A DNA stretch of 63,901 nucleotides, filler included, from Diploschistes diacapsis (Eukaryota): the NCBI GenBank assembly GCA_023645945.1. It is 11 parts of 11 records of this genome, joined end to end, with 100 filler letters (N's around TTAATTAATTAA, not from the genome) between each part and the next. Parts side by side here need not be neighbours in the genome. Positions count along the whole stretch, not along the records: positions 34,857 to 58,297 come from JALAIB010000264.1; 10 more parts are not named here. One strand, written 5' to 3'. A program made the translations under genes and the position numbers. The notes beneath the pieces are model-generated. The model searched no databases, had not been told where the DNA came from, and saw nothing but the letters and a program-made list of their open reading frames with translations. Numbering within the stretch: the first letter of the stretch is position 1; every line of letters starts with the position of its first letter. Below are positions 27,191-61,670 of the stretch, in pieces.

Positions 27191-27452
27191 AGGCTTAATA
27201 AATTATTAATATCCGTATCTATCTATTATCTATCCTTTATTATTAATATTAAATAACCAGTTTCGAGNNNNNNNNNNNNNNNNNNNNNNNNNNNNNNNNN
27301 NNNNNNNNNNNTTAATTAATTAANNNNNNNNNNNNNNNNNNNNNNNNNNNNNNNNNNNNNNNNNNNNATTTAAGATATATAAGATCTGATTCGTTAATTT
27401 TTATGTTTTTTGCGATTTTTAATCGAAGTCTATAGTCGTGATATGTTGGAAT

Positions 27453-28044: not shown

Positions 28045-29243
28045 TTTTATACCTTTATCGAAACGGGAATTGTTGTTATTTAGAACTGGATCATTCAGTT
28101 TAATATTTTTGAATGTTGGGATCGCCTTTTCATCCATAGAGGTCTCGTTTTTTATAATGACGTTGGTATTATTAAGGAAATAGGTTTATAGTAATTAATA
28201 TTTAAATGTAGAGGGAAGTGGACGATTCTTAATTTAGATTATGCTTTAAGCGTTCTTCTTATAGAACTGCTTATCGAAAGAATAAGCCTAGTTCTTTCTA
28301 TCTAGGATTGTTAAGGGCAATGGGTCCTTAGCCTGGCGATATATAAAGTCTTTAGGTAAGCAGTATTCGGTTCTTATTAATACTAAATTATATAACTGTT
28401 GGCTGGACGAATTATCGTATAACTTTTTTTACTGTATCGGTTCGAGAATTTTATTTTATTTATATTTTCCGGTAGTTGTTCGAGCGTTAATTGTGATAAA
28501 GTAAATATATCGTTAAAGATCTTTAATCTTTATATGACTAACACGTATATTTAATGGAGCCTTTTTTTTAAAGATATCAGGTTTTAGTTAATAGAATTGG
28601 TAAGTTTGGGTAAGAACGTTTAATCAATACCTAAAATAGTTAACCATAGATGCGGTAAGGTGGGCCCTATAATTAACGTAGAAAGAGACGGAAATCTTAC
28701 GAGCGCGGTATTAAACGCCCTTGTTGATCCATATCAATAAGGATAGCTAATACTGTCTATCCAAGGGGTTTAAACTTTAGAAACATGGAATGAAGTTTAT
28801 TAATCCGGATCAGCAAAAGTGGCTATCGTTACCTATTTAAGAAATTTAGACTCTAAAAACATAAAAAATGTACTTAATGATCCAGATCGGTAGGGTTACG
28901 TGTGGAAAACTACTTATAAAGGAATCCATGGAAGTTGATTAGACAGGATATTATTAACCGTTGGACGAGTTTAATGTTATAAGAAGCTGTTGTAGGAAAA
29001 TAAGAAAAGAATATATATTATAAATTTAAAAAAACAACGCTGAATAATAATAAATAACATACTTATTGTATACTGTTAGAAATTATATAAAAAATTTAAA
29101 ATCATAACTTCGCCCCAGTTTCGCTAATTCACTTACATAATATNNNNNNNNNNNNNNNNNNNNNNNNNNNNNNNNNNNNNNNNNNNNTTAATTAATTAAN
29201 NNNNNNNNNNNNNNNNNNNNNNNNNNNNNNNNNNNNNNNNNNN

Positions 29244-29413
29244 CGGACATTATAATTAAAAATTTTAAAAATATTAATACTAATACGGACATTATATTTC
29301 CGTAAATCCATGGACACGGATATCGCAGCTAAAAAATCTAAAACACGGACACTAACACTATCAGTGTCCGTGTCACTGACACGGCCGTGTCAGTGTCAGT
29401 AACGGCCAGCCTA
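29244..29413. mobile_element. Right end of a further copy of the same TIR element
   Basis: Near-identical to 27870-28044 and ends ACGGCCAGCCTA. Confidence 0.8.
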
Positions 29414-30155
29414 ACCTAAAGGTCCTCGAATATTTAATTTAATTTTAAAGATCGGATAATATATCTATATTTCCGCGAGTAATTGTGTCGTCGTTTTTTT
29501 ATATTCCGTTATATCTTTCGGAATATCGTTATTTTTCGAAATTTTATTTATTTTAATACTTATAGCTTTATCACGTTCTCGATTATGATTTCTTAATTAA
29601 CACGTTCTTTGATTAAGTCTCTAAACGAGGATCTTTTCCGTTCGGGTTCCTCGCGGGGGCCTTTCTTGGATCCTCCCGGTACTGATTCTTCGCTGGTATT
29701 AAATCTTTCGAAGGTTTCTAACGTTAATGATTGTTGTAACGCGGGATATCTTATGGATTGTTTTTTAATTAACGATTTATTTACTGAATTATATTCTTTA
29801 ATCGATAGTATCTCGATTAATTTTTTAAAAAACAAAAATATTATCGATTTTTTTTTCTTTTTTGATCCTTTTTATTAACGAGAGTTATTATTTATAATAA
29901 ATCGACGAATAATATTTTCGAGTTCCGGTTATTATGGACTTACTCGAATACTTATTTCGGTTAACGTTTTAAATTCTCGTCATAAATACAAAAATAAAGT
30001 AAGCTTTTCGAATATAAAACGCCAGCGCAGGAATGAAATATTATACTATCGGGGGCTGAGCTTGATCCGGAAGGATTACGTGTAGCTAGACATCTGTAGA
30101 TAAAAGATCTCGATTCGAAAAGCTAGAAAAAAAACTATTTAAATGGGAGGGTACA
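29414..30155 (-). mobile_element. Gypsy-type element: partial 5' LTR, priming site and gag-proximal region
   Basis: 30015-30150 matches the LTR family at 31453 and 32337; 29735-30010 is the reverse complement of 32603-32887. Confidence 0.75.
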
Positions 30156-30390
30156 TCACGAAAAGTTTTTGGCGGCGAAACACCGCGAAAATCCGCGAAG
30201 TTGGCGAAACTGGCGAAACCGGCGAGGTGGGCGACAGATAATGCGTTCAAGCGACTCGCCGTGTTTCGCCAAACATTTTGGCGAAACGTGGCGAAATCGG
30301 CGAAACCGGCGAAACCGGCGAAACTTAGCAAAACTGACAAAACTAACGAAACCGGCGAAACTGGCGAAATTTAACGAAACCGGCGAGGCC
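30156..30390. repeat. GC-rich array of (C)GGCGAAA motifs, probably the subterminal region of another DNA transposon interrupting the LTR
   Basis: Repeated GGCGAAAC/CCGGCGAAA units with a local inverted copy (TTTCGCC). Confidence 0.55.
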
Positions 30391-31115
30391 AATTATTTTA
30401 TACTTATATTTTATTTAATTATTACTCGTCTCGCACCTTTCATAAATATAATCATTTATTATTATAATACGCCTTTTTTATATTTATAATTATTAATCGA
30501 TACTATAAACGTAATATATAAAATCTATAATATAGACGAGATTTATAATATAAAAAAAAATTTATAATATAGAAGAAATTTATGATATAAAAGAGATTTA
30601 TAACGTAAAAGAGGTCTATAATAAACTAAAGAAACTATAATATAAAAAAAAATTAAATATAAATCTAAACGTAATATTAACGTAATAACCGGGCGTCTTT
30701 ATAATAATAACTATTATCTTTTTTATTTCTTCCGGGAACGTTTGCGATACAATAAATATCTTATTAATATTCTATTATAATATCGACGTCTTATATTATA
30801 AACAATAATACGTAACCTATTCTCGTTATATATTCCTCTCTTTTTTTTTATGATCTTTAAAATCTAATCTATCAACGTCGTAATCGTAGTATTTTTATTA
30901 TACGTAATCCGCATAATTAATCGATCGTCTTTTATTACTACTATAATAAACTTAATAAACGTCAGTTTATTAATATTAATACTATAAATCAACGAGAGTT
31001 CATACAGTATATAATNNNNNNNNNNNNNNNNNNNNNNNNNNNNNNNNNNNNNNNNNNNNTTAATTAATTAANNNNNNNNNNNNNNNNNNNNNNNNNNNNN
31101 NNNNNNNNNNNNNNN

Positions 31116-32300
31116 AACTTGTCCATTATAACCTAAATGCTGTTATCTAAAACACCTATTATTAGATCCTTAGATATTAATAGTTTGATTATAAAGTCTA
31201 TTATGATTATCTTTTATGGTTAATCTGGTTTCTCGATAGTTTAAAGAATCCCGTATCTTCTATACGTAGAATATTTGTTCTTTTAATATTTCTCGTATTA
31301 TTTAATAAAATTAATAATTTGTTGTTTCATTCCTTCGAAATGGCAGTTGCGTTGAATGGCTTTAATAGTAGTTATAATACCTTTATATCTATATTCCGGT
31401 GGATTATGATGTTATTATCTACAATTTTATATCTTTTTTATAAGAATGTGTATAAAACGCCAGCGCAGGAAAGGATGCTACTCTACCGGGGGCTGGGCCT
31501 GATCCGGAAGGATTAGGTGTAGCTTGGGCATCTGCAGGTAAAAGGTCTCGATTCGAAAAGCTGAAAAAGAAACTATCTAGATGGAAGAAAGGCACCGTTA
31601 AGTAATGTGGGTGTTAGACCTACCGGGGTTCGGGGACTACCCATCTATACAGCCACCCCCTGACCCTGCCGTGGCTTGGCAAGCACCTGGGCACTAACCC
31701 TGCCGTGGCTTGGCAAGCCCAGCTTGGCAGGCCCCTGGGCTGGGCTGTCTCAGTGTAGCTTCCGTCGTGTTACTAAATATTATTCTTATTGATCTTTTAG
31801 GATATTTATAACTGCTATAAATTCTCGAAAATCTGTCGTGAATGATCCGTCATTATTGATCTTTAATAGTTTAGTTTAACGTAGTTTTTTTATTATATAA
31901 TCTGGCCACTTATTTAACGCGTTAGCTCGTTCGTTTGTTTTATTTACGATCTTTTTAATCGTAAAACGGTATCGTCCGAGAATCTTTAATCAACGAAACT
32001 ATTTCGGGTTAAGTTTCTTTATTATCGTAAACTTTAGTAAATTTATATAATCTATATAGATTTCGATTTTCTTTACTTCGTGAATATAAATATACTATTC
32101 GTTTAAAGTAACGATTATGGCGAGTAGTTTTTAATCGCTTATATCGTAATTAATTTTTATTAATGATATCTTTCTCGAATAACAGGTTATCAGCCGTTAC
32201 TTATTATTATTTATTCGAAAGGATCCGAATAGAATATTATTAGTCTCGAGTAATATATTTAAATTAAAAAACCCGAAGAACGAGGAAAACGATCGAATAT
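31116..32300 (-). mobile_element. Ty3/Gypsy pol relic (RNase H to integrase region)
   Basis: Minus strand reads INYDISD*KLLAII...IYIDYINL...KLNPK*FR*L...NERANALNKWPDY, a RIP-damaged NYxIxDKELLAI...TDHKNL...ADALSRRPDY. Confidence 0.85.
31453..31752 (-). mobile_element. Solo LTR (300 bp) with 5-bp TSD, inserted in the Gypsy pol
   Basis: Flanked by GTGTA at 31448-31452 and 31753-31757. It is the reverse complement of LTR 32337-32602 plus an internal duplication of about 34 bp. Confidence 0.9.
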
Positions 32301-32336
32301 CGTAAGTCTATTATAGATTAATTAAAGCGCTACCGA

Positions 32337-32887
32337 TGAGACAGCCCAGCCCAAGGGCCTGCTAAGCTGGGCTTGCCAAGACACGGCAGGGTCAGGAGGT
32401 GGCTGTATAGATGGGTAGTCCCCGAACCCCGGTAGGCCTAACACCCACATTACTTAACGGTGCTTTCTTCCTATTTAGATAATTTCTTTTTCAGCTTTTC
32501 GAATCGAGATCTTTTACCTATAAATACCTAAACTACGTTTATTCTTTCCGGATCAGGCCCAGCCTTCAGTAAAGTAACGTCCTTTCTTACGCTGGTGTTT
32601 CATATTCGAAAAACTCACTTTACCTTCGCACTCGTGACGAGAGTTTAAAACGTTAATCGAACCAAATATTCGAGTGAATCTACGATAACCGGAATTCGAA
32701 AATACTACCCGCCGATCTATTATAAACAATGGCCCCCGCTGATAAAAAAGATTAAAAGAGAAAAAAAAAATCGATAATATTTCCGTCTTTTAAAGAATTA
32801 ATCGAGATACCATCGATTAAAAAATACGATTTAATAAATAAATCGTTAGTTAAGAAACAATCTATAAAATATCCCGCGTTACAATAG
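32337..32887 (+). mobile_element. 5' LTR (32337-32602, TG...CA) and start of the internal region of a Gypsy-type element
   Basis: TGAGAC...TTTCA ends, followed by ATTCGAAAAACT, which is nearly complementary to the LTR-internal AGCTTTTCGAAT. Confidence 0.85.
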
Positions 32888-33368
32888 NNNNNNNNNNNNN
32901 NNNNNNNNNNNNNNNNNNNNNNNNNNNNNNNTTAATTAATTAANNNNNNNNNNNNNNNNNNNNNNNNNNNNNNNNNNNNNNNNNNNNCTGCTTAACGATT
33001 TAGTTTCTTTAATTAACACTCCCGATATTCCTTACAGATTTATTTAATATTAACGTATATTTTATTTCATTAATATCGCTAAACTATCATCTTTTACGTA
33101 ATGTTATAGTTTCTATAACCAGATTAGATGTACATTTCTTTTAAAATGTATATCCTTTTATCGAAATTATCAATCATTCTTCTTACTGCCTATAAATGGC
33201 AACCGCGTCTAAAAAGTTCCTTATATTAGATCAGATACTGGGTAGTTTGGCGTTTCAAATTTCTAAATTCGGCATTAAACATTCCTGATAATTTCTATAA
33301 TATAATCAAATATTCTGCTATCTTTTAATATTTATTAGAATACTAAGAATCTAGATTTAAAATCATAG

Positions 33369-34275
33369 TATAAACACAAGGCGCGCTGTCTAGGGAGACT
33401 TCCCTTGCTGTAGTAGGTAGGTAATCGTAGGTGGTGTAATAGGTGAATGTAGTGTGATCTCGTAGTCAACAGCATACCCAGGTAGGACATTTGTGAGGTG
33501 TAGGATGCATTCCTTGTCTAGAGCTACCTAGCAGGCCTCTTTAAATGGAGCTGCCCTTCGGGGACTACCCCACTAAGTCTTATAGCTTACTTTTCTGTTT
33601 ATATACGACCCCCCCCTCGACAGTTCGCTGCCCCATAACGAACTTTATATAGATCTTATTAACCGGAAATCTTTTTCCGGCTATCTATATCCTAATATAG
33701 TTTTGTATTTTTTAAACAATCGAAATATTTAGAAACCTATCATTTTTAATATTCCCTTCTCGACGTAATTATATTTTAAACGTAATAATATTTCTGAATC
33801 TATTCTTTTATATTTTATTCTCTTGAATACGGCAGGACAAAAAGGCGGTAATTATTTAAAGATATTTTTAACTTTTACCGTATTTATATTATCCGTAAAT
33901 ACTCTTTAAAAAATATTCTTATCTTCTATAATATTCTTACCATCCATTAATATTCTTTTAAACAAATATAATCAGCAGTATGTCCGTCCTTCTTATCTTT
34001 TTTTTATCTCCTTTCCCGTCTCGTTATTACTAATAAAAAGTCAATTACAGATAAATAAACAAAAAAGTAGATAAAGAAATTTATCACAAAATTAAGCAAG
34101 CTATAAAGCACAAGATAAGCATATTAACACATAAAAAAATAAGTACGTAAGCAAGAAAGTATTTAAAGGATAAACAAGAAAGCAAGCTTATTAAGAAACG
34201 AGCAGACAACCGAACAGCCATATAAATAAATAGATACTACTTTTTTCCTATTATCGGCCCCTAGGGTCTTATAAT
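33369..34275 (-). mobile_element. 3' LTR (33369-33603), PPT and 3' internal region of a further LTR family
   Basis: LTR ends TATAAAC...GTTTATA (RIP form of TGTAAAC...GTTTACA); adjacent CCCCCCCTC is a minus-strand PPT. Colinear with 58796-59705. Confidence 0.75.
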
Positions 34276-35624
34276 ACTAACTCTAACTTTTAAGCATATA
34301 ACCTTCAATCAAAATGGTTCCATCTTTTCATAAACTTTTTCTATATTTTTTTCTCTTTATTTATAGTTTAGATATTTATAGGCTTACTTTAAAAAATAGA
34401 TTACGAAGATTTCTAAGGATTTTGAAGAGCATTACCTAACAATACGCCAAAGGAAATACAACGTTTTTTAAACTTAAAGAAAAAATTTCTTTTCCGCCCT
34501 TTTAAAGACGAAATACGATTATTAAAAAATATAAAAATAAACGTTATTTCCGGACGAGAATCTAGACGTAAATAAAAAAAAGAACGAAAAAGAAGATCAA
34601 ATAAATAACCTTGATCTAAGCATAAAAAAGATAAAATCCAAAAAAAATAAAGAAGAAGAAAACGAAAAAGACCTTATAAGAAAATAAATACGGAATAAAA
34701 TTAAGGATTAAATACTGAAAGTAAGCCTATAAATATCTAAACTATAAATAAAGAGANNNNNNNNNNNNNNNNNNNNNNNNNNNNNNNNNNNNNNNNNNNN
34801 TTAATTAATTAANNNNNNNNNNNNNNNNNNNNNNNNNNNNNNNNNNNNNNNNNNNNATATGGGATCTAAAAGGCTTTAATACTTTTATAAAATAAATATA
34901 TGTAATTTTATTTTTAAAGCATACCTACCTTCGCCCTTATTATATAAAAATAATCTTTATGGTTATAACCTCAGGTACTCTTTCGTGTGTATTTTAAGGA
35001 AGTAATCGCAATATCTATAAGCATTCTGATAAAAGAAATTCGATTGCCGTAGAGAAATAATTTCAGAAAACGTCCCGTGCTTAAAATGTAACCATGCCCC
35101 TTTTATAGCTTTCTTTCACGCTTTTGGTTATGTCTGTTTTTTAATGCAATCCCTTATCTCTGTAACGCACGTTACGATTCGCCCTTACGATGTACTTTGG
35201 GGATACGTTAGTATATATTAGTGCTTAGTCGAGTCAAGTTCAATTTGGCTATTTATCGAGGATGACGGATGAGGCACTTTCATCCCTGTGTTCCTTTTAG
35301 TGTCTTTATCGATCCTCTTTTTTTTCGAAAGGGTTGTAAGATCAGCCTTCAACGTGCTCTTCAGTATGTATCGAGGTAAGTCTTAATTATGAGCGGGGGA
35401 TTTGCCAGGACCTTGAACGAATGCGTCGTTGAACTATTTTTTGACTTCTTTAGCTGCTGTGCGTGTCTTGGTAGGTTGCGGCTCTTATAGCATCGAAACG
35501 TGTTTTGAGGGTTTTTACTTTTACAAGAATAGGGAATTTTTACTCTTATTCCGTTTTGTTCTTTGCTGAGTTTTTTCTGGTACTATTTTTCTAATACTTT
35601 ATATTTTAATTCTATCATTTTATT

Positions 35625-37119
35625 ATGAAACCTCAAATCACTTTCGTTATAGCCGCGGTGGCTTAAACCGCTGCGGCTTTCCCGCATATGGCCATCAACG
35701 ATCTAGCAAAACGAGCATTGTTTCATGGCAGAGCTGGAGCTCCGGCATCTGGCGTCCCTATTCCGGATCCTGCATAAGTCGCAGGAATCTTTGATCCTAC
35801 CCTGCAATACGTGAGTACGACAGGTGAGCACGCTTTTATGCCCCCTGGTGAAGGGGACCAGAGGGGACCGTGCCCGGGATTGTAAGGTTCAATTACTTGA
35901 TATCAAGCTCATGCTCAACGTTGATGAATAGGAATGCTGCAGCAAACCATGGGTATATCCCCCACAACGGCGTCGGAACAATCCAGGTAGGTTGAGGACA
36001 AAGAGCAACCATACTCAAATCCTGAATCTGAATGTAGGACTTCATTAACGGAACCTACACGGCATTCGGAATGGGACTAGATCTGGGTGGATTTCTTGCA
36101 GTATACGGTTCGTAACCCTCTTTCCAACCCCCAAGACCATCATCCTATATTCTAACACCATGTAGGCGCCATCGAGGATGGCGATCTCACAAGCTGGTCC
36201 ATCGGCGGTCCACCAGGGATCCTCGGTCTCGGCGGCAACGGACTGATTGGCTCGCACAACAAGTACGAGTCGGACGTTTCCCCGACTCGGCCCAACCTCT
36301 ACGAATACGGCAACAACTACGAGGTCGAGATGTCGCAGTGGCAGGCGCTCTACGCCAAACAATCTTCCCTCTCCAACGACGAATCCAACTACAACCTCGC
36401 CGTCCTCCAAGAATTCCGCGCCGAGCGCTTCAACCAGTCCATCGCCAACAACCCCAACTTCTTCAACGGGCCCTTCAGCGGCGTGACCGTGCAGCCCGCG
36501 GCCTACACCTTCATCTACCGCTTCATGGCCAACAAGTCCGCCGAGCACCCGGACGGCGTGCTGACCCAGGACGTGCTCAAGTCCTTCTTCGGCATCACCG
36601 AGAACGCCGACGGGAGCTTTAGCGGCGGCCTAGGCTGCGAGCGCATCCCCGATAACTGGTACAAGCGCGCGATCGGCGACGAGTACACCATCCCCTTCTA
36701 TGCTTTGGATCTGAACTACGAGGCGCTGCAGTACCCGCAATTCTTGAGCGTGGGCGGCAACACGGGCACCACGAACAGCTTTACGGGCGTGGACATTACG
36801 GATCTCACGGGGGGCGTCTTCAACGCGCAGACGCTGCTGCAGGGGAATAACCTATTCTGTCTGGGGTACCAGTTCGCGCAGGCGGGGTTGACGGATCAGT
36901 TGGAGGCGCTGGGCGGGACGCTGACGGAGCTTATTGGCACCATCAGCCCGCAGGCGGCGGAGGCTATCAGCAATTTGGGCTGTCCGGTAAGTCTATGCGA
37001 GGGGGCATTGATGATGGTGCAAAGGCTGACGTGATTTGCTACAGCAATTGAACGATATCGATACGTCGATGCTCAACCAGTTGCCGGGGTACACGAAGGG
37101 CGGTAGCATTTTGAGGTGA
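35625..37119 (+). pseudogene. Heme-thiolate peroxidase / unspecific peroxygenase (long type), with two premature TAA codons in exon 1
   Basis: Signal peptide from ATG 35625, GDQRGPCPGL|NAAANHGYIPHNG (PCP heme-ligand motif), SHNKYESDVS, YRFMANKS. In-frame TAA at 35664-35666 and 35775-35777; 4 introns. Confidence 0.88.
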
Positions 37120-37664: not shown

Positions 37665-40600
37665 ATGTCGTCGCTGTGGAGCTCAAGGATTCAAACGACA
37701 AAAGCCACCAATGGATGCCGAGACAATGAGGCGCCAGAAGATGCCAGTATCGGCAACATTCTAGCGATGGCGTACCAATCGTTGGTGCAAATTGAAAACA
37801 GTCTCCTGTTCGCCGACAAGTTTCTCGGAGCAGGGTCTGTGTTCCAAGTCAATCGCGAAATCTACAAAGAGACACATCATTCGCCACTGAGCTACTACGT
37901 AGCGGTCAAATACATGCGACTGGAACAGCGCCCGGAGACCCGTCGCCAAATTCTCACTGCGCTGACCAGGGAGTTGAAGGTGATCACACATTCGGTGCTT
38001 CGGAGCCATCCTCACATCTGCTCGGCCCTGGCGTTCGGTTTCACCAATCCTAATCTCGGACAGCCAAGGCCGTTTCTTGTGATGCCATATGCTGAATTTG
38101 GCACCCTGTCCGAAGTTCTTCAAGCTGTACGAATGCACAGGCAGATATCAATCCTTGAGCAACGGGACTTGGCGTTAGACGTCGCGTTGGGTCTCCAAGC
38201 ACTGCACGAGTCTGGATTCATTCATGGCGATGTGAAAACCAACAACGTTTTGGTATCTAGCCGCTCTTATCCCCTAGGGTACGATAGCGGAAATGATGGT
38301 ATTCCGTGGATCGCTAAAGTGGCAGATTTTGGTTCGTCTTTGAGTCGAGAAGATGCTGAAGGTCACGCTTTTCACTACACCGGGACCGCGCTCTATAACG
38401 CGCCTGAGATCGAAAATGGCGAGGTACTCCGTGACAGAGTCTTCGAAGCATACAAGAAGGCTGACACGTACTCTTTCGGGCTCCTCCTCTGGGAAATTCT
38501 AGAATCAGGGTCTTTCTATCTCGACACGATCAAGGAATATGACGCATTAATCGCGCAAAAACGATATAGAGAGTTCTTGCAGAAGACTCATGATAGGTCT
38601 GGAAATGCAATGTTTAAAATAGCTTTAACCTCCCTTCAGGATGCGAGAGATGAGATCACCGATCAAAAATGTTGGGACAAAATAGTAAGGACCTTGGAAT
38701 CATGTCTGAACAGGGAAGGCCGTTTCCGAAAAGACATGAAAAGGGTCGCCGAGGAGCTTCAAGGAAGCATAGTGTACGCTGTTTGTTTTTCTTTGATGTG
38801 ATTGTGCTGATTCAAGGCTCGCAGATCCGACAGATCTCCGGTTGTCTATTCTTTGCCTAAATTAACGAGCCAGCCAGTCACGAAGCCTACTATGGTCGGA
38901 CCCTTACCGCAGAATAGACCTTATCCTATCATGACCCCCGGACTGTGGCAGCTACAACCATTCCGCTCAACAGAAGTTCACCCAACGGGCACGACCTTCC
39001 GTCCCATACCAAGAGATGCAGTTATGAAAGACAGACTTCTCATTCCGTATCGAAGACTAGACTCGCGCGACCTTGAGACGCCGCAATCTCGCGAGTGTAA
39101 TGGGCTCAGCCTTCAACACGTGTGTCACTCCATCTGCCAATCTGAAGTGCTGCCGTTGTGTTAACGCTATACTAGGCGATTCTGTCCCCGCTCCCACCTC
39201 GGGAGATTCAAGAACGCCTGGTTGAACAGTGGGAGACGCAGGTACACAATGGTCAGGACTCTAAAGTCATTTCGCAAGCTTGCTTGGAATTGAGTATATG
39301 CCATTACTTCGGCTTTGGATGCGAACCAGATCGACTTGCATCCCTCCAATTTCTACGGCAAGCCTCTTTTGGAAGCACTACCGCGAAAGCAATCGTCGGC
39401 CGTATCTCCGCCGCCTTTCTCAAAACCAAAGATGGCGGAATCGATAATGAGAGACCGTATAATGATGGAAAGGACGCAGCTTATTTCAGCCAGCGTCTCC
39501 TCTCTACGAATTCTACCATAATAATGCGTCCCACTTTGCAAGCAAAGCCTCGACTTTCTTTGAGACCTGGCCATTACCCAGATAGTTCGAGAGTCGAGCT
39601 CGTGATTCGGCTAATCCGTCAAGAACTGGACTGTCGACAAGATATGAGAGGTAGTGTGGACATCAACCGCCTCGAGCAACTGTGGGCAAGTCATATTCGG
39701 AAGGAATCAACTCCATTGGAAAGCCTATCTCAACTAGACATCTCAGCATCTCTGACAGAGTCATGCAGATTGGGACTCTTTGAGACTGCCAAAGCCTTAG
39801 CAGCCATGTGTCTGCAGTTCATAGGCAGGTTCGGGAATCCCAACCCTCTACATTGGTTGATAATGTTCCCACCGGATCAGGCCCAATACATTGCAGAGCT
39901 ACTTGTGCTCGGAATAAAGGGTAAAAAGCCCTACGGGATCTGCTTCCATTGTCTTAATTCTCGGATTTCGTCTATTACCTTTCTACCTGAGCACTGTATG
40001 GAACTCATTGGAACCCCACTTCATTGGGCTGTTCGTGGCCGAAACCTCGCTCTCGTAAGAAAGCTCTTAGATTTAGGCGCTGACATGGCAGTGAGATATG
40101 CACCACATGTTCCAATTCTGGGGGAGCCGCCAAGCATCGGTCGTGCAGCTTATAGTCCGCTGGATCTTGCCCTCGAATTTCATCTACACGAAATTGCTGA
40201 ATTATTACTGGACCATAGCCGACTTCAAGGTGCAGGAAACGAGCTCGAGATAGCTCCCTCTATCATGGCCCATACTGCAACGCCCTTCTCCCGCTTCATT
40301 ATCCACGGGCCATATTATCGTATTGCTCTACGGAAGACTATAGAGGTTCTGTCTCGTAGAGGCTACAATATCAACAGATCAGACTACTTCGGAGATCAGC
40401 CACTCCTTGTCTCGCTGAGAAATGCCGCTCATGAGGAATACATTACTGAAGAACTCCTCAAGGCTAATGCATACCTCAGTGAAAGCTTGCCAGGAAACGA
40501 CAATCTGGCAATCCTTGTAGTTCTCAGCGCAGGGACAGATCATCCATCAAGAGCATTTAAACTCCAACAAATTCTCCATCTCGTTGAGGATCTTAACGCT

Positions 40601-41569
40601 TGTAACGACAAAGGATACAATGCGCTCCATTACTGCGCTTTCACTAGCAATGCCTCAATGGCAAAAGTCCTCCTTTCATCAGGTCAGGTCGATATCAGTG
40701 CCAAGAGCTCAAATAAATATCAAAGTACGCCACTCATCATAGCTGCTGAATATGGCGGAGTCGCAATTTTGAACATACTGCTCGAGGTAGGGGCAGACCC
40801 AGATTCTTCCAACGCTCGTGGTGAGACCGGCCTGGAGTGCGCGATCCGCAATCGACAGTATGAGACTGCCTCCTTGCTGATTGAGCACGGTGCTTGCCTT
40901 TGTTTCCGTTCTCGGAATTCCGTTCCTCAAGACACAGTTCTACATGCGGCGTGTGTTGGTCCTAGCAATCGACCTCCGCTTGTAAGACGCTTGCTCATGG
41001 GTCACGCCAAGCTTCGGGAACATGACGTTCTTCACCAGACCATTGATAAACGTTATGGATTCGGGGCGAAGACTCCACTTCATCAAGCCATCATGTTTGC
41101 TGATCTCGACTCCGCCAAAGCACTCTTGGAGTACGGAGCGGATGGGAACTATTGGACGCATCCTCCGGAACTTGATGCCTCAAACCGGATTACCAAGATT
41201 CTCCACAAACAAACGGCCTTTGACTTTCTCAACCGTCTTCTATCAAGGGCGAAGACCAAGGGACTTTATGGCGAACAGATTCAAGCGGCTCGCCAGGGAC
41301 AATTGCAAAATTCGAGATTGATCATGAATGGCAAATACTTTGATCAATCACAGGAGAGACTCGAATGGGAGAAATTCGATGGCGTGCCACAATTCAACAT
41401 TCGACTGGAAGAGATACAATCTCAGCAACAAGGTCAAGCTGGAGTGCGTAGCTTCATTGCCCGTCTTGAAGAGATAAGGCGGATCATGGTGACACGAGGA
41501 TGCGAAGAGACGGACCCAGAAACTCTGCGGCTTCCATTTCTACTAAAGCAGTCGAAAGAAAGTGAATAG
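37665..41569 (+). CDS. Protein kinase - SEL1-like repeat - ankyrin repeat protein, 2 introns
   Basis: LGAGSVF, YVAVKY, HGDVKTNN, ADFG, YNAPE, DTYSFGLLLWE; LELSICHYFGFGCEPD (SEL1-like); TPLHWAV, NALHYCA, TPLIIAA, TPLHQAI (ankyrin). Introns about 38774-38824 and 39120-39175. Confidence 0.9.
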
Positions 41570-41710: not shown

Positions 41711-42911
41711 TCACGAGGGCAGATTTCCTACGAAGACGACCATGACCGCACAATAAGCCGCCGTCGCCGAGAATATTTCAAAATTTCGTGATTCCGTCAT
41801 GCAAAGGGCTGCGGAGAAAGTCGTGGTGAAAACCGCTATCGCCCAGATTCTGGAGAGCATCATGTCCATAGTGTACAGAACAGTAATAGGCACAATCAAC
41901 GTCAGAATGGCAAGGACTGCGGTCAGAAATCTTGAAACGGCGGATACCCGTTGAGCCGAAAATTGGACAATGTGTTGGTCAGTCGACTTTTCGCGGTCCT
42001 TCTACAGACTAGTCAGCTAAGCTGTGTCTGCGGGCTCGAACGAACAGAGCGCGTACTGCGACACCAAAAATCTGCTGCGCGTCAGATCACCTTCATGTTC
42101 TTGGGTGTGTATAATCTTTACCCAACTGAATCCGTGCTCATGCAGTCTGACGGCACATTTCTCCAGGAACCAGTCTAATCCAGCGTGATCGGCCGGACCT
42201 TGCGGAGCGCTCAAATCCTCCCAGTCCTGGAAAGCTACCGATTCCTGGGGCGTCAGGGGTTTGTTACCTTCGAGCCAGCGGCAGATACTCAGTATCTGCG
42301 ACTCGCGTGGCTTTCGCCGTTCGACGTGGCGGTAATACTCGTTCAGCAGTTTATCTTCGATCCAGATAAGCTACGGCGAACTTCTTGGAACGAGTTTCAT
42401 CAATACCGTAAGCTAATAGTTTGCAGCTGATGTTTGATAGGAGGTCTTGGCGATGCGTATTTCTATCCTGCCGTCGCGAGTGGAGGAAGAAAGAGGTACA
42501 CTCGTTTCGGTCCAGATCGTCAAGCTGTTCCTGCAACTCAAGAATCTCATCTTGCTTGTGCAGTAAGACCCGCGTATGCAAACGGCTGAATTGTTTGAAT
42601 ACGCAGAGGCTGCGGTCGCTGCTCAACAAAGCTGCTAAGCGGGGATAGCCTGGGCGATAGTTTTCGACTATGAACGTCGCTATCAGGAGACATGGCACTT
42701 TCGAGATCAAGAAGAGGATGGCAAGACATACTGATGCCACTCTTATGCTTGAAGTAGGGTTTGCTACGGGATGGGTTTGCTGTCTGAGAGACTATGTTCC
42801 CAAACGGTGAGCTACATTCTGCTGAGAGATGCGGAACTGACCTCTGGCTCGTTTAATGAAGTTTGGGACATTGCCGCTCGGGTCTTGACTGCTTCTGTAG
42901 CTACTTGCCAT
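41711..42911 (-). CDS. DUF6594-like fungal protein with C-terminal transmembrane helices, about 4 introns
   Basis: ENYRPGYPRLAALLSSD..FKQFSRLHTRVLLHKQDEILELQEQLDDLD; C-terminal LTLIVPITVLY..FTTTFSAALC..EIFSATAAYCAVMVVFVGN. Probable ATG at 42911 with GTCAGT and GTATGT introns; the start is less certain. Confidence 0.85.
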
Positions 42912-43821: not shown

Positions 43822-46101
43822 ATGGAATCGCAGGTTATAAGCACATTTACTCAGCACAGCGCTGCCTTTTTCAAAGACCGATCAGACTACGATAGTGTCA
43901 CTGTCCTGCTGCTCTATTGGCGTGACGGGGACCTAGAAGTCGACGAGGAGCTCAAGGCAGTACGGAAATTATTCGGTGCATCGTTGAACTTTGTCGTTGC
44001 CTCGTACCCAATCCCGGGCGATGGAACTCAACAGGCAAGGCTCTACAGGCAGATCGCCAGCGTCGTCGAAGAATCAGCTTTGCAGCCGAGGAGTCTCTTG
44101 ATTCTGTACTATACGGGCCATTGCAGGGAGACAGAAGGTAAAGCTGAGTGGGCTGCGTGTGTGCTTTTCTGCCCCAAGATCGAATAGCCTGCTCTAATTG
44201 CTGAATTAGGAGAAGACGAGGCGGCTCAACACTAATATGGTCGGATATACAACGATGTTGCTTTGGCGCAATCGGTGATGTTCTGCTGATACTCGATTGC
44301 TGTCATGCTACCCTGTTCGCTAAAGGTCGTAAGGATTGCGGCAGGTTTGAGATACTCGCGGCATGCGCCAAAGGACTTGAATCCCCTTTGCCTGGACTTG
44401 GATCCTTTACCTGGGCTCTCTTGAAAGCTTTGTCGGAGGAGCGTCTAAGAGATGGAATTGCAGTACGAAAACTGAGAGGCTTAATCGAAGATTACTCAAG
44501 AGGTGCATCCCGGACCTCTGTGACAATGAATCCGTCACTGATGCTGTTTGATAGAGACACCGTTCTGGGACTCTTTTGGCAGCGATAGTGTTGCGACTAT
44601 CATCATCAAGCGCCTTAAGCCGTCTTCACATGTGGGCTTCGCCAAAAAGCCCGCAGGATATGTATTCTTCCGAGCATCACTGGTAGATGATTTGGATGGG
44701 CTTCAGATATCGGACTGGCTCAAGACCAATGCTCCGGAAAACGTATCAGCTATACACATTGAAGCTGTTGTCTCGAAAGCCCGCCGGCTACAGCGCAATC
44801 TTGACCATGGCGCTTTCGCTCCAACCTCTATCCTACGAAAGCTCTCGACAACAGCACAATCAGAAATATTGAGAGAATTGCAGTCTCTCGACACGGTTAT
44901 GGCGAACTCTAGGCAGGCCGCATCGGATACCAAAAAACGTGACAATAGTAGGGCAGATAAGGATGTTTTCGAGGCTATGCAGAGCACCATAGATGAAGTC
45001 AGCAATCTGATTGAAACACCAATTCTTCTTGATCTGAGCGAAGAAAATATAGACCGTGCAGTTAAGGATGACGATGCTGTTCCTCAAGATATAATAGAAA
45101 ATATCTCGCTTCGCAACCAGATCATGGCTTCAGACGAAGACCCCAGAACTTCATACGAAATACCTCGTCAAGATATCGAGTTCGAGGACAACTTGAATCG
45201 GTTCAATTATGGCCGGATTGGCGAACAGAATGTACTCCTGGAATTCTTCGGGTACGAGACGGACCAGAACGGAGATCTCTTCCCGGAAACGGTTCAGCAG
45301 CTTAATCTAATGGCAGCGCGTTTGTGCCACAGCAAGCGCCTAAGCTTTCACATCCTTCCATGCCTCGGTTATGTCGAAGACAAAGTCGAGTGTCGATTCG
45401 GACTCGTCTACCAGCTTCCGCCCTTGCTGAGCGCAGCACGCTTATGGGTAATTTCGTTGCACTCACTGTTCACTACCATCCACCGGGTATCTCTCAGCCA
45501 GCGCATGAAGACGGCCTACGCAATCATTACAGCCTTGGAGAATTTCCATCGCATAGGTTGGATCCACAAGGCCATCCGCAGCGACAACGTCTGCTTTCTC
45601 GTCAAAGACAACAGCTTGGAAGCCGTTGACAACAGGAAAGGCGACGGCGGCGACGTCGACTTCTCCTCCCCGTGGCTGATCGGGTTCGAGTACGCCCGCG
45701 CCGGCGCCGCCGGCAGCAAGCTCGAGGAGGACTATTCCGAGGTGCGGAACCTCTACCGGCACCCGGACCGCTGGGGCCGGCCCGCGGCCAAGCACACGCG
45801 CGCGCACGACATCTACTCTTTGGGGGTCGTGCTCATGGAGATTGGCTTCTGGAAGGCCATCGACCAGGTCGTCGCTCCGCCCAAGCCTGGCCAGCGCCGC
45901 GTCGCGGCGGCGTTCAGGGAGAGTTTGATGCGCAGGCTGGAGCGCGCCCTTCCGCACCAGACCGGTGACGTGTTCGTGGCGGCGGTCAAGGCTTGCTTCG
46001 ATTACGAGGGGGAGGTGGTTGGTAAGAGCGAGTTCGAGATGCAGCAGATCTTGCAGAGGACGGTGCTTGCGCAGGTGAAGAAGATTGTGAACAAAGTGTA
46101 G
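43822..46101 (+). CDS. Caspase-fold (clan CD) protease fused to a C-terminal pseudokinase domain, 2 introns
   Basis: VTVLLLYW, LLILYYTGH (His at 44119), DVLLILDCCHA (Cys at 44298), EILAAC, SFTWAL; C-terminal WIHKAIRSDNV, LIGFEYAR, LYRHP, DIYSLGVVLMEIGFW. Introns about 44157-44209 and 44503-44554. Confidence 0.88.
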
Positions 46102-46650
46102 ATGCTAAAAAGAGATGAAGAAAAGGCAACATGGCAAGCTCTCGTTGAGAGAAAGGGAGGACACGACTCGAATTTTATTTGCTCTAAAGTGTATTCTATG
46201 AACTGCCTTCCCACAAGAGAAGTTCACCGCAAGGCTATATAGAAGCCGGTACCCAAAGTAGGAATTACTTAGTGAGATGTGTTTACAAACAAGGCTCTTG
46301 ACAGATCTTAGGTTCATTATTTGTAGGGTCCATGGTATTTCGATGTAAAGACTGTAGAGTTTGAAAGTATTAATGCAAACATTGACGTCTTGTACTACTC
46401 TACTACTCAAGTTGTCAGTAATGACTTGAAGTGATGCTGTGAAACTTGCGGCGGACGCGCTAGCTCGCCATGGCACATGGCTGCCTGCCTGCAAGGAGGG
46501 ATAGACGCACCCGTTGACTCATACTCTATAGTAGTATGTGCGGGGAGCAGGAAACATGTAGAGATCGTGCAAGTGACATATGCATCAGGTACAAACTGGA
46601 AATTCATTAGAGAAAATAGAACTTCGTAGATTGGTGATGCAAGATGTTGG

Positions 46651-47853
46651 ATGTTGTGCCCTATGGTATGTGGTATGTTATGTTCAACTGTTAGCAGACC
46701 AAGACCCGAGAATTGCGCTAATAATTGGGCCATTCTTTGCAGGCTTCAAAGCCTGGCCAAAAACTTTCTTCATGTACCATACCTTCTTCACCATGCACTT
46801 CCGATTGACGAGTCCCTTGTAATGCACCTTCAGCGGTCACTCTCACTGTGTACCCAGCCATACTGCGCACAATCACTTTTTGCTGTCCATGATGGCTTCA
46901 TTCGCCGTTCGCTTTGCCGTTCGCTTGCGCCACTCCAGAGACGCAAATCACACCTTTGCGTCCAGGTCGATCAGCCAAGGGATCCCATAAAGAGTGATGT
47001 TAAGCGTTTCGAGCCGTTGCAGTATGATTTCAATAAGAAAGCCAAATACTGCATGATCGAACTGGAGATTAAAAAGGAGGGAAAAGTCAAAGAACGTGTT
47101 ACTTGTAGCGTCGCCGAGGCGCTCGTGGAATACATAAAACCTGGGCTACTCCTTTCGCCTGCCCTGGCGATTGAAGACCCTATGAAGTTTCTCGAGGAGC
47201 ACTTCACCAAGATCCTAACAGAGCCAGAGAAACAACAAGACAAGGGAGATAGCGACGGGCGTTACAATGCTGCAATCCCACTCTATGTCTTGGAAGACAT
47301 TACTCCTACCCCAGGCCAGCTGCGAGCGAAACGAAAGACGGAAACCAAGGTCGTTTGGACCTCTGTCGACCAGCCTCTTCGCATACAGTCCATGATGAGC
47401 AGCGCCTTCAAGGCTCTCCTGCTCGGCGGCCGCTCTATTTTCACGCTGCAGTCTAGGTTGGTAGTCGAACGGAAGGCAAGCATGACTCTTCGACGTGCGC
47501 AACGTACGCACACTCAAATGACCTCCAACCCGAGCAAAGCCTCACCTGTCTATTCAGATTCACCAAGAGCATATCGATGCAACATGCAAGAGCCCAGTGC
47601 TGAGACGCGCTCGATGGTCGAATGGAATTGCACGTACATGCCGCATGTGTGGCCGAATGTGTTGATGAGGAGTATGCCAGAAGATACCAAAATGGCACCC
47701 AAAATTGCGTTACAGCCGCACAGCAACAATGTACAGGTAAAGTGGACGTTCGTACGGCATCTTGAAAAACGTAAAGCGCTCAGCTCATCCTCGCGGAGTG
47801 CTGAGGTTGATAAGCCTCTATCAAGGGCAATGCAGGACTTTATGAATAGGTGA
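46651..47853 (+). other. 400-codon ORF of unknown status; only the central part looks protein-like
   Basis: Long open frame with a charged central segment (DVKRFEPLQYDFNKKAKYCMIELEIKKE) and no recognised motif. Confidence 0.3.
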
Positions 47854-57579: not shown

Positions 57580-58795
57580 ATCCGCTATTCCTACCCAAAC
57601 CCCATTCTCGAGTGGAATGGGCTAGCCCTACTCCATGCTCTGTGACGTCCACGTCTCCACGTGCACGGTGGCGACTTAACCCCGCCCGATTTCATTTCAA
57701 CTGCCCTCTTCATCCCCCAAGCTGCAGCATCCACAAATCACACGAGCAACTCAATGAAATGTTTTATAGCACATGAGATAAGGCTCTCTCTTCCAACTCA
57801 ACCGGAGGGCCCCTTGAAGGTAGGCTCGGACAAGTGGCACCTCCCTGCACATGGGACTGACAAAGATCCCGTCAACAGCCCGGCTCAGCTAGAAAAAAGG
57901 TTGGGGGAGTGTCAGAATTGCGCTTCCCTCTCTTCCTATAGAGGGCAATCTAATTTGAACTGTTCGCGGTTGCGGGTAAGGGAAGAAGCGCTTGTAAGCG
58001 CATCATTACAGTATTATTCGGGTTCTCCGATATCGAGACTACTCCTTCTCGGGCTGTTGAGTCGGTCGGGAGAGATTCACACCTGCAACCCCTAACCCAG
58101 GGTCGCGACGTCGAAATACCTTAGGAGCCCCCCCCCTTCAAGTCCTTCAGTCCCTCCGTGCCCGGGGCAGGCCTTCCAGTCCACAGCCAGTTTGACATCC
58201 TTCACCGACACCAACCGAACCCAATCCCAGCCCAGCCGACCAACCTCGGTCAAACCAATCCAAGCATGGCCCCCTCGCCGCCCCCCTCCTCCTCTTCNNN
58301 NNNNNNNNNNNNNNNNNNNNNNNNNNNNNNNNNNNNNNNNNTTAATTAATTAANNNNNNNNNNNNNNNNNNNNNNNNNNNNNNNNNNNNNNNNNNNNAGA
58401 GGAGTGCAAGCAGGAGAAGAAGGTAGAGCAGTTACAGGTCTTAAATTGTTCTCTAGAAAGAAAGCTTTCTAATAATAGAAATAACGAATATAGATTAATC
58501 TCGAGCAATAATTTAAGATATTTATAAAAGTAAACACGTCTTAAACTTATAAAAACCATAGCGACGTTCTTATATAATTAACAGCTCTTTTAACAGAATA
58601 GATAAGTAAATAAATAGAATTACCGTTCTTTCTTTTTATTTACGACTAGGTAAAATAATCTTTAAAACTTTCTATTCATTACGTGACCCGTGTCACCCTG
58701 ATTGGACTATATATAAGGAATAGCTGGGAAGTGCCCGACTAGCTGTTGCGTGCCAAGTACTGCCGAACAGTACCTTGGATCGTAACATCTTATAG

Positions 58796-59705
58796 TATAA
58801 ACACAAGGCGCGCTGTCTAGGGAGACTTCCCTTGCTGTAGTAGGTAGGTAGTCGTAGGTGGTGTAGTAGGGGAATGTAGTGTGATTTCGTTGTCAATAGC
58901 ATACCTAGGTAGGACATTTGTGAGGTGTAGGATGCCTTGCTTGTCTAGAACTACCTAGCAGGCCTCCTTAAATGGAGCTGCCCTGTAGGGCCACTCCTAT
59001 TAAGTCTACGGCCTACTTTTATGTTTATATATGATTCCCCCTCTCGATAATTCGCTGCCCTATAACGAACTCTATATAGATCTTATTAACAAAAAACTTC
59101 CATCCGGCTATCTATATCTTAATATAATCTTATACCTTCCAGACAACCGAAATACTTAGAAGTTTATTATCCTTAATATTCTCTCCTTAACGTAACTATA
59201 CTTCTAAACGTAATAATACTCCTAAACCTATTCTTCTATATCCCACTCTCTCGAATCACGGTAGGACAGAAAAGCGGTAATTATCCAAAAATATTCCCAA
59301 CTTTTACCGTATTTCTACTATTCGTAAATACCTTTCTAAAGATATTCCTATTTTTTATAATATTTATACCATCCGTCAATATTCTTTTAGACAGGTACAA
59401 CCAGCAACACGTCCGCCTCTCTCATTTCTTTCCCTTTTCCTCTCCCGTCTCGTCACCATCAGCAAGGAGTCAACTACAAATAAACAAGTAGAAGAGCAGG
59501 TAAAGAAATTTATCACAAAATCAAGCAAGCAATAAAGCACAAGGCAAGCAAGTTAACACATAAAAAAGCAAACACGTAAGTAAGAAAGCACCTAATAGAC
59601 AGATAGGAAAGCAAGTTTACCAAAAAGTTAATAGACAACCGAACCGCTATATAAATAAATAGATTTTATTTTATTATAGTTATAGGCCCCTAGGGTCTTC
59701 TAATA
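58796..59705 (-). mobile_element. Second copy of the 3' LTR (58796-59029) and internal region of the 33369 family
   Basis: Colinear with 33369-34275, differing mostly by C/T and G/A changes. Confidence 0.8.
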
Positions 59706-60389
59706 CCCATTTTTTTTATCATGCTACCCACTCATTCCCGTTCCCTTCCTCCTTTTTTTCCCTAGATTCCACCTTTTTTAAACTGAGATCCAGATTATCT
59801 TCTTCTTCTTCATCCTCTTCCTCCTCTTCTTTCTCCTCCTCTTCGTCCGGAGGAGGCGCAAACCTCCTTATTTCCCAGTAATTTATTCCTTCCTTTATCA
59901 ATATCCCAAAAAAGCTCTTTTTAATAGAATTATATAGCTCCTATTCGGCTGATTTAATAATAAAGAAATGCTATTTTAGCGCTAAGGTTACCTTCTCGAT
60001 CCATTCTCGGAAGTAAATATTTTTAATTTCTAGCCTGAAAATCTTTATTTATTTTTTTATAATTAAAGGATCCGTCCATTTTCTTTTTTTTATTAAAACG
60101 TCCGAGATTGCCTCAAGCCCGGTAACCTAAATTACCGCTTTAAAGAAGTACGGTACGCTTTTATACNNNNNNNNNNNNNNNNNNNNNNNNNNNNNNNNNN
60201 NNNNNNNNNNTTAATTAATTAANNNNNNNNNNNNNNNNNNNNNNNNNNNNNNNNNNNNNNNNNNNNGTTATAACTCGTACGAATCGAGAAGGGTGTCCGC
60301 TGGCTATAAATATCCGCTCGCTATACATATACGTTATATAATCTCGTAATTTATCGTATTAAATTTATTCGATTCGATCTAACTCGTCT

Positions 60390-61670
60390 TGGAACATCCT
60401 GAACGTTTGTGGGTTCAAGGGTTGAACCCTGGTAGGGCGGGTAGGGCTGGCACCCAGACTATTTATTTGTGCCCTGCTCCCATCTAAATAGTTCCTTCTT
60501 CTTTACCTTTTCGAATCTGAACCATTCAGCCTACAGATTGCAGCTACACGTGATCCTTCCAGATTAGGCACAGCCCCTGGTTGTGTAGTATTCCTGTAAG
60601 GGCGTTCTACATTCGAAAAGGTCCTTCAGGGCTACCTGCTCGGCTCAGGACCTGAAATATTCAGTTTATATCACCTACCTACCTACCTACCTACCTACCT
60701 ACCTACCTACGAGAAAGAATCTAGACCTAATCTTATCTGATACTACCTACGCGAGCTGGCGCGTTTTTGAAGATGAAAGGTCTACGACACCTAAAAGCGA
60801 CGAAAAACCTTTTACGAACAAGCAAAAGATCGACGAATCAGAATCCTCGATCTAATTAGTATTCAGCTATGGCTATAACTAAAATGCTAAATCTAATCTT
60901 ATCTATCGCGATAAGATACTACCTAAGCGAATAACCTAATAATAATAAATCTACGACACACCCACTTAAAGCGACGAAAAGCTCCTATTAAGAATTTACG
61001 ACAAGCAGATCGACGAATCAGAAGCCACGATCTAATCAATTACGATAAAAAAACTTGAAATACCATACAAGTTTTTGAACCAGTCGAACCTTCACTTCAT
61101 CAACAAACAAACCTTCATTTCGCCACCTTTCGAAAGCGGTTTCTGCTGTCACGCCTACTGCTGCTACTACTGCTTTTCGCCCTGGGAGTTGCCTGTTTTT
61201 AGTATTATTGGTCTAATAGCACCCATTTACGACGCCGAAACTTGAGAGGAATAAGGTCGGGCACGTATCTACGTATAGTACGGGTTGAAGAAAATAGAGG
61301 GAAAAAAGACTGAACTAGGCCGAAAAGAGTATTAAGGTATGGGAAGACTAGGAGCAGATATCTGAACTAGGAAAAAAAAAATAAAAGTTTTGTTTTATTT
61401 TTGTTTTGTTTTATTGCTAAGAGACAGCAACAATTTAGAAAGAGGGATAGTAGAACATCCTGAACGTTTATGGGTTCAAGGGTTGAACCCTGGTAAGGCG
61501 GGTAGGGCTGGCACCCAGACTATTTATTTGTGCCCTGCTCCCATCTAGATAGTTCCTTCTTCTTTACCTTTTCGAATCTGAACCATTCAGCCTACAGAGT
61601 GCAGCTACACGTGATCCTTCCAGATTAGGCACAGCCCCTGGTTGTGTAGTATTCCTGTAGGGGCGTTCTA
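60390..61670 (+). mobile_element. Complete non-autonomous LTR element (TRIM-like), 1281 bp, two 220-bp LTRs
   Basis: LTRs at 60390-60609 and 61451-61670; TSD CGTCT at 60385-60389 and 61671-61675; PPT AGAAAGAGGGATAG before the 3' LTR; no internal ORF; (CCTA)n at about 60674-60710. Confidence 0.92.

Follow-up and report, generated by a model that had tools for sequence, protein, structure and literature searches.

A predicted caspase-fold domain joined to an MLKL-type pseudokinase in Diploschistes diacapsis, with a candidate partner kinase

A gene on the plus strand at positions 43822-46101 of a 63,901-nucleotide stretch of DNA from Diploschistes diacapsis (assembly GCA_023645945.1; the whole stretch is hereafter the window, and positions count along it) is best read, with a probability that we put at roughly 0.55, as encoding a three-part protein in which a caspase-fold domain with a metacaspase-style His...Asp-Cys-Cys arrangement, a helical linker, and an MLKL-type pseudokinase would act together as a kinase-triggered protease switch. 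The gene arrangement suggests a cell-death or immune switch that is triggered by a kinase and has a protease, not a pore-former, as its output. The original prediction for this gene, made from the sequence alone, had described a caspase-fold protease with an intact His-Cys dyad fused to a degenerate kinase, the latter being a swappable regulatory switch analogous to MLKL, and computation bears this interpretation out as far as it can.

Gene structure

The region holds three open frames, and no single open reading frame (ORF) joins exon 1 to exon 2. Spliced as three exons (Table 1), they give a coding sequence of 2175 nt with a single terminal stop and a product of 724 aa; an in-frame TGA lies immediately 5' of the ATG. 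The gene start and the exon junctions agree with two annotated homologues, P0009 (Amniculicola lignicola, 717 aa) and P0013 (Alternaria alternata, 725 aa), and the joints are fixed because the sequence of these homologues is reproduced across both of them. Without intron 1 the product reads ...GKAEWAARRRGGSTL..., which is collinear with both homologues, and removal of intron 2 gives ...EDYSRETPFWDS..., equivalent to ...DDHTRETPFWAP... in P0009 (over the two joints P0009 and P0013 read ...GKAVWTAMRRGGPTL... and ...DDHTRETPFW...). Both introns are predicted from homology together with splice signals. The motifs YYTGH, LDCCHA, NVLLEF, HKA, and GFE all lie where the original prediction had put them, and its placement of the catalytic-type Cys in exon 2 is borne out by the spliced model.

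The N-terminal domain

The fold was assessed on an AlphaFold2 (AF2) model of residues 1-292 of P0009, which is 51% identical to the window protein over the exon 1 piece and 72% over the exon 2 piece. The model has a mean predicted local distance difference test (pLDDT) score of 78.5, rising to 81-95 in the core blocks, and a predicted template modeling score (pTM) of 0.73. Foldseek finds 328 matches to it in the PDB at E<=1e-3, and those listed are exclusively clan-CD peptidases or caspase-fold proteins, with GSU0716, Trypanosoma brucei metacaspase 2 (TbMCA2), MALT1, Yca1, caspase-7, CED-3, and legumain at the top. VIA-align superposes 192 residues on Arabidopsis metacaspase 4 (AtMC4; 6w8r) with a Z of 18.4 and a root-mean-square deviation of 2.7 A, gives Z values of 17.3-18.1 for caspases 3/6/7/8/9 and for MALT1, and returns 445 chains at Z>=8; the matches at Z 17-18 span model residues 13-232. 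The predicted fold of residues ~21-232 is thus the caspase-hemoglobinase fold, as had been claimed for this part of the protein; the structural evidence for it is strong, that from sequence by itself weak. In the model, strand 3 (91-98) ends just before His100 and strand 4 (135-141) just before Cys142-Cys143, so that His100 and Cys142-Cys143 are predicted to occupy the canonical places of the clan-CD catalytic pair. The His and the Cys-Cys are kept in 13 of 13 full-length homologues and, as set out below, in a wider family, and for this reason the motifs cannot be put down to chance.

Metacaspases (Yca1/Mca1, TbMCA2, AtMC4) and MALT1 share with the modeled domain the fold (Z 17-18), a His that follows strand 3, and a Cys that follows strand 4, and the Asp-x-Cys-His pattern of the window protein resembles the DSCHSG of metacaspases. 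TbMCA2, we presume, also carries a Cys-Cys pair in which the second Cys is the catalytic one, and the Asp before the Cys lines the S1 pocket of Arg/Lys-specific metacaspases. On the other hand, identity to metacaspases and MALT1 is only 8-15%, with no significant sequence-profile match, and the window domain differs from metacaspases in being compact (~210 aa, starting at about residue 21 with no prodomain), in having His-Cys for His-Gly in its clade, and in being fused to a pseudokinase. The lack of a prodomain, the absence of Yca1 from the PDB profile matches, and a structural identity of 11-12% agree with the claim that this protease is distinct from the housekeeping Mca1/Yca1.

A wider caspase-like family

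A profile built from the caspase-like domain recovers 5072 cluster representatives at E<=1e-3; tightening the cutoff to 1e-10 leaves 2448, and to 1e-30 leaves 354. Conservation was counted over 162 domain hits from 151 sequences. Of 157 non-gap cells, 151 hold the catalytic His; the residue next to it is Gly in 104, Ala in 28, Cys in 21, and Ser in 4 (n=157); the Asp preceding Cys-Cys is found in 154/157, the first Cys in 149/156, and the second in 151/156. This conservation therefore yields the signature YYxGH(G/A/C)...LDCC, with His-Cys in the clade of the window protein, and delineates a large caspase-like family of fungi that has no name.

A DUF7580-type pseudokinase, detected with a local hidden Markov model (HMM), is present on 55 of the 150 best caspase-like representatives. 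Of the other 95, the 65 that are at least 440 aa long were scanned with Pfam, and 28 of these have Peptidase_C14 or Raptor_N (Peptidase_C14 at E<=1e-4 in 22, Raptor_N in 10). Their partner domains are varied: homeodomain and/or rhodanese in seven members; ankyrin repeats in three; HET, TPR, VWA, and Tle1-like lipase in two each; and HeLo, NACHT/NPHP3_N, PHD, and GRAB in one each. HET, HeLo, NACHT, TPR, ankyrin repeats, and lipase are modules that fungal incompatibility and immune proteins commonly use. The proteins that join the caspase-like domain to HeLo (N-terminal), HET, NACHT, or Tle1-like lipase are P0126 (518 aa), P0196, P0200, P0210, P0194, and P0206. A homeodomain plus rhodanese architecture also recurs with the caspase-like domain (P0128/P0155/P0164/P0168/P0173/P0204). 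Pfam scans of the window pieces, the homologues, and the 65 family members gave no S8 match and no match to CHAT (PF12770), though a distant relation to CHAT could escape such scans.

The linker and the pseudokinase

Exon 3, modeled alone (P0003, 514 aa), gives a pLDDT of 86.9 and a pTM of 0.87 over the whole 514-aa chain, with helices at residues 46-190 (pLDDT mostly 83-96) followed by a kinase fold at 195-514. Relatives linked to HeLo align to the kinase part of the query only and not to the linker; the helical linker is specific to the caspase-linked clade. Over model residues ~194-514 VIA-align gives Z 21-23 to MerTK, BRAF/CRAF, EGFR, SYK, and CTR1. In the PDB sequence-profile search the best match is mouse MLKL (4m68, E 2.7e-5), MLKL takes four of the top five places, and the GFE of the family is aligned on the GFE of MLKL, results that lend substance to the analogy with MLKL drawn in the original prediction. 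The Pfam model DUF7580 (PF24476) scores 25.5 bits on exon 3 of the window (E 1.3e-5), just short of its 27-bit threshold, which many relatives exceed; P0004, an ORF identical to exon 3, has a precomputed PF24476 label.

Motifs were counted over 75 relatives. At the position taken as that of the VAIK Lys (the E of NVLLEF), Glu is found in 63 and Asp in seven; in an alternative register two residues further on, the counts are Phe 26, Lys 18, and Tyr 10, and the window protein has Phe. (At this second position Lys predominates in HeLo-linked members, and Phe or Tyr in the caspase-linked clade.) The position of the HRD Asp is Gly in 29, Glu in 14, Ser in 14, Ala in 10, and Asp in two, the window protein having Ala, and the position of the DFG Asp is Gly in 71 of the 75. 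The missing VAIK Lys, HK-x for HRD (HKA in the window), and GFE for DFG, all noticed beforehand in the window, are therefore features of the family as a whole, and the HeLo-linked relatives (63 sequences) share these motifs. On model and motifs, the C-terminal domain is assigned to the DUF7580 family as an MLKL-type pseudokinase that lacks the canonical catalytic residues. Among 74 relatives, the counterpart of Ser597 in the activation loop is Thr in 39 and Ser in 34 (Ser or Thr in 73/74), and this residue is a candidate phospho-acceptor.

An atypical but active kinase with relocated catalytic residues could also have a complete kinase fold at Z 21-23, would explain why relatives keep His, Asn, and Arg in HK-x-I-R-S-x-N and GFEYAR, and might draw its Lys from two residues past the usual position, as 18 of the 75 relatives would allow. 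We think this very improbable: in the window protein that Lys position is occupied by Phe and the position of the catalytic base by Ala, the latter position being itself so variable among the relatives, and the metal-binding Asp is replaced by Gly almost throughout the family.

One pseudokinase, several N-terminal partners

The same type of pseudokinase is used in modular fashion behind HeLo or caspase-like domains. Among 57 database matches to exon 3, 16 have a precomputed HeLo label (PF14479). A search of metagenome contigs with a 12-row alignment yielded 80 loci, of which 66 have a DUF7580-type ORF scoring at least 100 bits with our own HMM; the N-terminal partner is HeLo in 24 of the 66 (23 by our own HMM, L018 by Pfam) and caspase-like in two (L009 and L063), and in another two (L020 and L047) an active-looking kinase stands inside the same ORF as DUF7580; the remaining loci have no assigned partner. 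Our own HeLo HMM gave no HeLo signal in the window. That this pseudokinase is common C-terminal to HeLo domains, and that it is swappable, had both been stated beforehand, and the survey of partners agrees on both counts. The kinase fusions (L020:8816-11002 and L047:20-2878, both on the plus strand), with DUF7580 at the C-terminus, represent a third kind of partner, and their kinase halves read HRDLKPAN or HHDLRPKN, with DFG.

Pairing of DUF7580 genes with a kinase subfamily

The window contains one other kinase ORF, part of a gene for a kinase with ankyrin repeats (~1267 aa, Table 1) whose product aligns collinearly with P0217, a protein of 1256 aa from A. alternata. With VAVK, HGDVKTNN, and DFG it is active-looking and non-RD. 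In the metagenome loci, a divergent kinase ORF lies no more than 1.6 kb upstream of the DUF7580 gene in 19 cases. If only loci with at least 2 kb of flank are considered, a divergent kinase within that distance is found upstream in 18 of 38 and downstream in 0 of 33 (Fisher p 1e-6); with the near-identical loci L031, L037, and L058 dropped the figures are 15/35 and 0/30 (p 1.6e-5), and L038/L039 form a fourth near-duplicate pair, removal of which would make the upstream figure 15/34. About 414 kb of other flank holds a single kinase match. DUF7580 genes thus often pair, in a non-random and oriented way, with a subfamily of active-looking, mostly non-RD kinases.

The head-to-head loci are L001, L005, L006, L009, L015, L016, L018, L021, L028, L029/L031, L036/L037, L042, L043, L046, L053, and L058/L059. 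Most of them have HeLo-linked DUF7580 genes, and their partner kinases are mostly non-RD (HGD/HAD/HSD/HVD). Nine adjacent kinase ORFs that were scanned all match Pfam Pkinase at 66-93 bits, and the adjacent kinases retain VAxK, H-x-D-x-K-x-x-N, and DF(G/S), the catalytic loop being mostly HGD. The adjacent kinase of L037 runs on into ankyrin repeats, and L009, an independent caspase-linked locus, has a kinase plus ankyrin neighbor head-to-head at a distance of 486 bp. An HMM of 14 adjacent kinases, from which the window kinase was excluded, scores the latter at 196.5 bits, compared to 40-98 bits for 20 control kinases, and we place the kinase-ankyrin gene of the window in the partner-kinase subfamily on this similarity. 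Two possible further cases of linkage concern homologues of both genes. P0215, from Thelotrema lepadinum, is 55% identical to the ankyrin part and P0006 is 56% identical to exon 3, and each is on one contig of 14,974 nt, which is apparently shared; the A. alternata homologues P0218 and P0013 are both on a sequence of 2,492,942 nt. The idea of a role for the neighboring kinase, raised in the original prediction, has thereby gained unexpected support.

Evidence against a kinase-triggered protease

Several results weigh against reading this protein as a protease set off by its neighbor. Concerning the protease, two PDB sequence-profile searches with the N-terminal domain gave no significant match to a solved caspase; the first returned one spurious coiled-coil match (E 0.095), and the second returned AtMC4 at E 1.2, not significant, with YYgGHg aligned on HYSGHG. 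The exon pieces of the window, scanned separately, gave no Pfam Peptidase_C14 (PF00656) match at E<=1. (Among the homologues, P0020 reaches 32.2 bits against a gathering threshold of 21.4, P0019 and P0022 stay under the threshold, and P0009 and P0013 have no match.) Cys follows the catalytic His in the clade of the window protein, in place of the Gly of the His-Gly motif typical of clan CD. Raptor_N, matched by some relatives, has a caspase-like domain that is, to our knowledge, not known to be a protease, and the dyad alone is therefore no proof of activity. The Raptor_N matches, the missing match to a solved protease, and the His-Cys would suit a signaling adaptor whose caspase-like domain has no proteolytic role and works as a scaffold or interaction module, much as that of Raptor is assumed to do. 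We consider such a scaffold unlikely, given that the His and both Cys are kept in ~96% of the 162 domain hits and the Asp before them nearly as a rule, that 22 of the 65 scanned members match Peptidase_C14, that Gly follows the His in most of the wider family, and that the predicted fold matches active caspases and metacaspases as closely as it does.

Concerning the pseudokinase, the likeness to MLKL does not extend to structure, by which MLKL ranks 43rd in Foldseek and falls outside the top 50 rows of VIA-align. MLKL was accordingly rejected as the nearest structure, and the model shows a tyrosine kinase/tyrosine kinase-like (TK/TKL) fold and nothing more specific.

Concerning the partner kinase, the kinase-ankyrin gene is not head-to-head with its supposed target: both genes are on the plus strand, 2.2 kb apart and separated by a DUF6594 gene. 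At L063, which is also caspase-linked, the 8 kb upstream hold no kinase. The pairing statistics use our own HMMs, post-hoc thresholds, and anonymous metagenome contigs, and the linkage of P0215 with P0006 and of P0218 with P0013, inferred from equal sequence sizes alone, is suggestive and no proof. The pseudokinase might then work independently of the neighboring kinase and set off the protease by itself, as a ligand sensor, an effector sensor, or a decoy, with the kinase-ankyrin gene nearby by coincidence; 20 of the 38 DUF7580 loci with enough upstream sequence do indeed have no adjacent kinase. Such independence seems improbable to us in view of the score of the window kinase on the partner-kinase HMM, the recurrence of a kinase-ankyrin and caspase-pseudokinase pair at L009, the apparent sharing of a contig by P0215 and P0006, and the rarity of kinase matches in the other flank.

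Proposed mechanism

With a kinase-triggered protease switch remaining the favored reading, the kinase-ankyrin protein would be the sensor and activator, and would phosphorylate the activation loop of the pseudokinase (with Ser597 as the candidate site), flipping the switch as RIPK3 does with MLKL. The flipped switch would free or oligomerize the caspase-like domain, and the released protease would cut substrates, probably after basic residues, in the course of regulated cell death or an immune response, a setting that is suggested because of the companions of both domain families. Control of the protease by the pseudokinase is argued here from the analogy with MLKL, and proteolytic activity of the caspase-like domain, phosphorylation, and binding are each predicted steps.

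A more general version of this scheme, which we put forward tentatively, as possible rather than probable, is that Pezizomycotina carry a widespread two-gene, necrosome-like module in which a non-RD kinase, often with an ankyrin sensor, would phosphorylate the Ser/Thr of the pseudokinase loop and so unleash either a fused HeLo pore-former or a caspase-like protease.

Relation to known systems

Animals, plants, and fungi all have known MLKL-like proteins, in which HeLo or a four-helix bundle is joined to a pseudokinase. MLKL, the executioner of vertebrate necroptosis and the best solved relative of the window pseudokinase by sequence profile, resembles the window protein in having an N-terminal executioner-type domain joined via helices to a C-terminal pseudokinase that has GFE for DFG and no catalytic Asp. 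It differs in that its N-terminal domain is a four-helix bundle (HeLo-like) and not a caspase fold, and in the structural comparison the window pseudokinase is no nearer to MLKL than to BRAF or MerTK. Parallels also come from the fungal HeLo/HELL-pseudokinases (PF14479 plus PF24476), which have the same HK-x, GFE-Y-A/S-R, and YRHP-x-R motifs and share the partner kinase subfamily, there head-to-head; in the window protein the pore-forming HeLo is replaced by the caspase-like domain and the clade-specific helical linker. The review PMC12881547 calls the fungal HELL-pseudokinase proteins "reminiscent of MLKL" and describes how RIPK3 phosphorylates the MLKL pseudokinase loop, releasing the four-helix bundle. 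The counterparts here would be the conserved Ser/Thr of the activation loop and the nearby gene for a candidate partner kinase, which, unlike RIPK3, has ankyrin repeats.

Gasdermin-controlling proteases of the HET-Q2-like kind (S8 or CHAT) likewise place a protease in a multidomain, immune-type architecture, and these may, according to PMC12881547, be fused to "predicted kinase-like domains". In Table S6 of PMC8851545, "PKinase" occurs eight times, and at least two rows give it as an N-terminal clan beside Peptidase_S8; the word "kinase" occurs 0 times in the main text of that paper, and "Peptidase_C14" and "caspase" 0 times in its supplements. The word "caspase" occurs 0 times in PMC9815663, and "kinase" 0 times in PMC11138114. 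The window protein differs from these proteases in having a C14-like domain and a C-terminal pseudokinase, and in that no gasdermin-like gene was recognized among eight large neighboring ORFs, a scan that small or multi-exon genes could escape. In the literature searched, outside which most subscription journals fall, we found no paper on DUF7580, no description of a fusion of a C14-like domain to a pseudokinase or of fungal kinase-pseudokinase gene pairs, and no upstream kinase for fungal MLKL-like proteins.

Other features of the window

The genes discussed here belong to a gene island at 36-58 kb with a GC content of ~0.5, flanked by AT-rich blocks at 24001-36000 (GC 0.29-0.33) and 58001-62000 (GC 0.37-0.38) that look like degraded isochores of the type produced by repeat-induced point mutation (RIP). 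A Peroxidase family 2 ORF lies at the edge of one of these blocks. Downstream of the caspase-pseudokinase gene is an open frame that may not be a real gene. Coordinates are collected in Table 1.

Table 1. Positions of the genes, exons, predicted domains, and motifs in the window
Feature	Position	Strand	Residues	Remarks
Exon 1	43822-44156	+	1-111, plus two bases of codon 112	First half of caspase-like domain
Intron 1	44157-44209	+		53 nt; donor GTGTGT, CTAAT branch-like site, acceptor TTAG
Exon 2	44210-44502	+		Second half of caspase-like domain
Intron 2	44503-44554	+		52 nt; donor GTGCAT, CACTGAT branch-like site, acceptor ATAG
Exon 3	44555-46101	+		Last caspase-like strand, helical linker, pseudokinase; stop TAG 46099-46101
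Predicted caspase-like domain (clan CD, C14-like)	43882-44622	+	~21-232	Span takes in both introns
Predicted helical linker	44692-45126	+	~256-400	
Predicted pseudokinase (DUF7580/MLKL type)	45136-46098	+	~404-724	
YYTGH	His100 codon 44119-44121	+	96-100	Exon 1
LDCCHA	Cys142 44298-44300, Cys143 44301-44303	+	140-145	Exon 2
NVLLEF	45229-45246	+	435-440	Exon 3
HKA	45565-45573	+	547-549	Exon 3
GFE	45682-45690	+	586-588	Exon 3
Candidate phospho-acceptor in activation loop	45715-45717	+	Ser597	Exon 3
Kinase-ankyrin gene	37665-41569	+		Exons 37665-38771, 38817-39119, 39176-41569; introns 45 and 56 nt
DUF6594 gene	42017-42791	-		Pfam 67.4 bits; divergent from caspase-pseudokinase gene
Peroxidase family 2 (PF01328) ORF	36156-37034	+		Edge of AT-rich block, just upstream of kinase-ankyrin gene
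Downstream open frame	46630-47853	+		407 codons; no Pfam match; low ESM Atlas recognition 1294

Significance

The MLKL-like architecture as such is already known; what is new is the putative caspase-like executioner and the oriented pairing with a partner kinase, and the pairing is the most interesting and most testable by-product of this work. A pseudokinase of the type found behind pore-formers is joined here to a different executioner-type domain, a predicted caspase-fold protease. If the pairing is functional, it would provide a testable fungal counterpart of the action of RIPK3 on MLKL, and, in fungal immunity or allorecognition, would connect kinase signaling with proteolysis of the caspase-like kind. 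Should the more general two-gene scheme be true, fungal cell death of both kinds, necroptosis-like and caspase-like, would be governed by one logic of kinase to pseudokinase, and this logic would predate the RIPK3-MLKL pair of animals.

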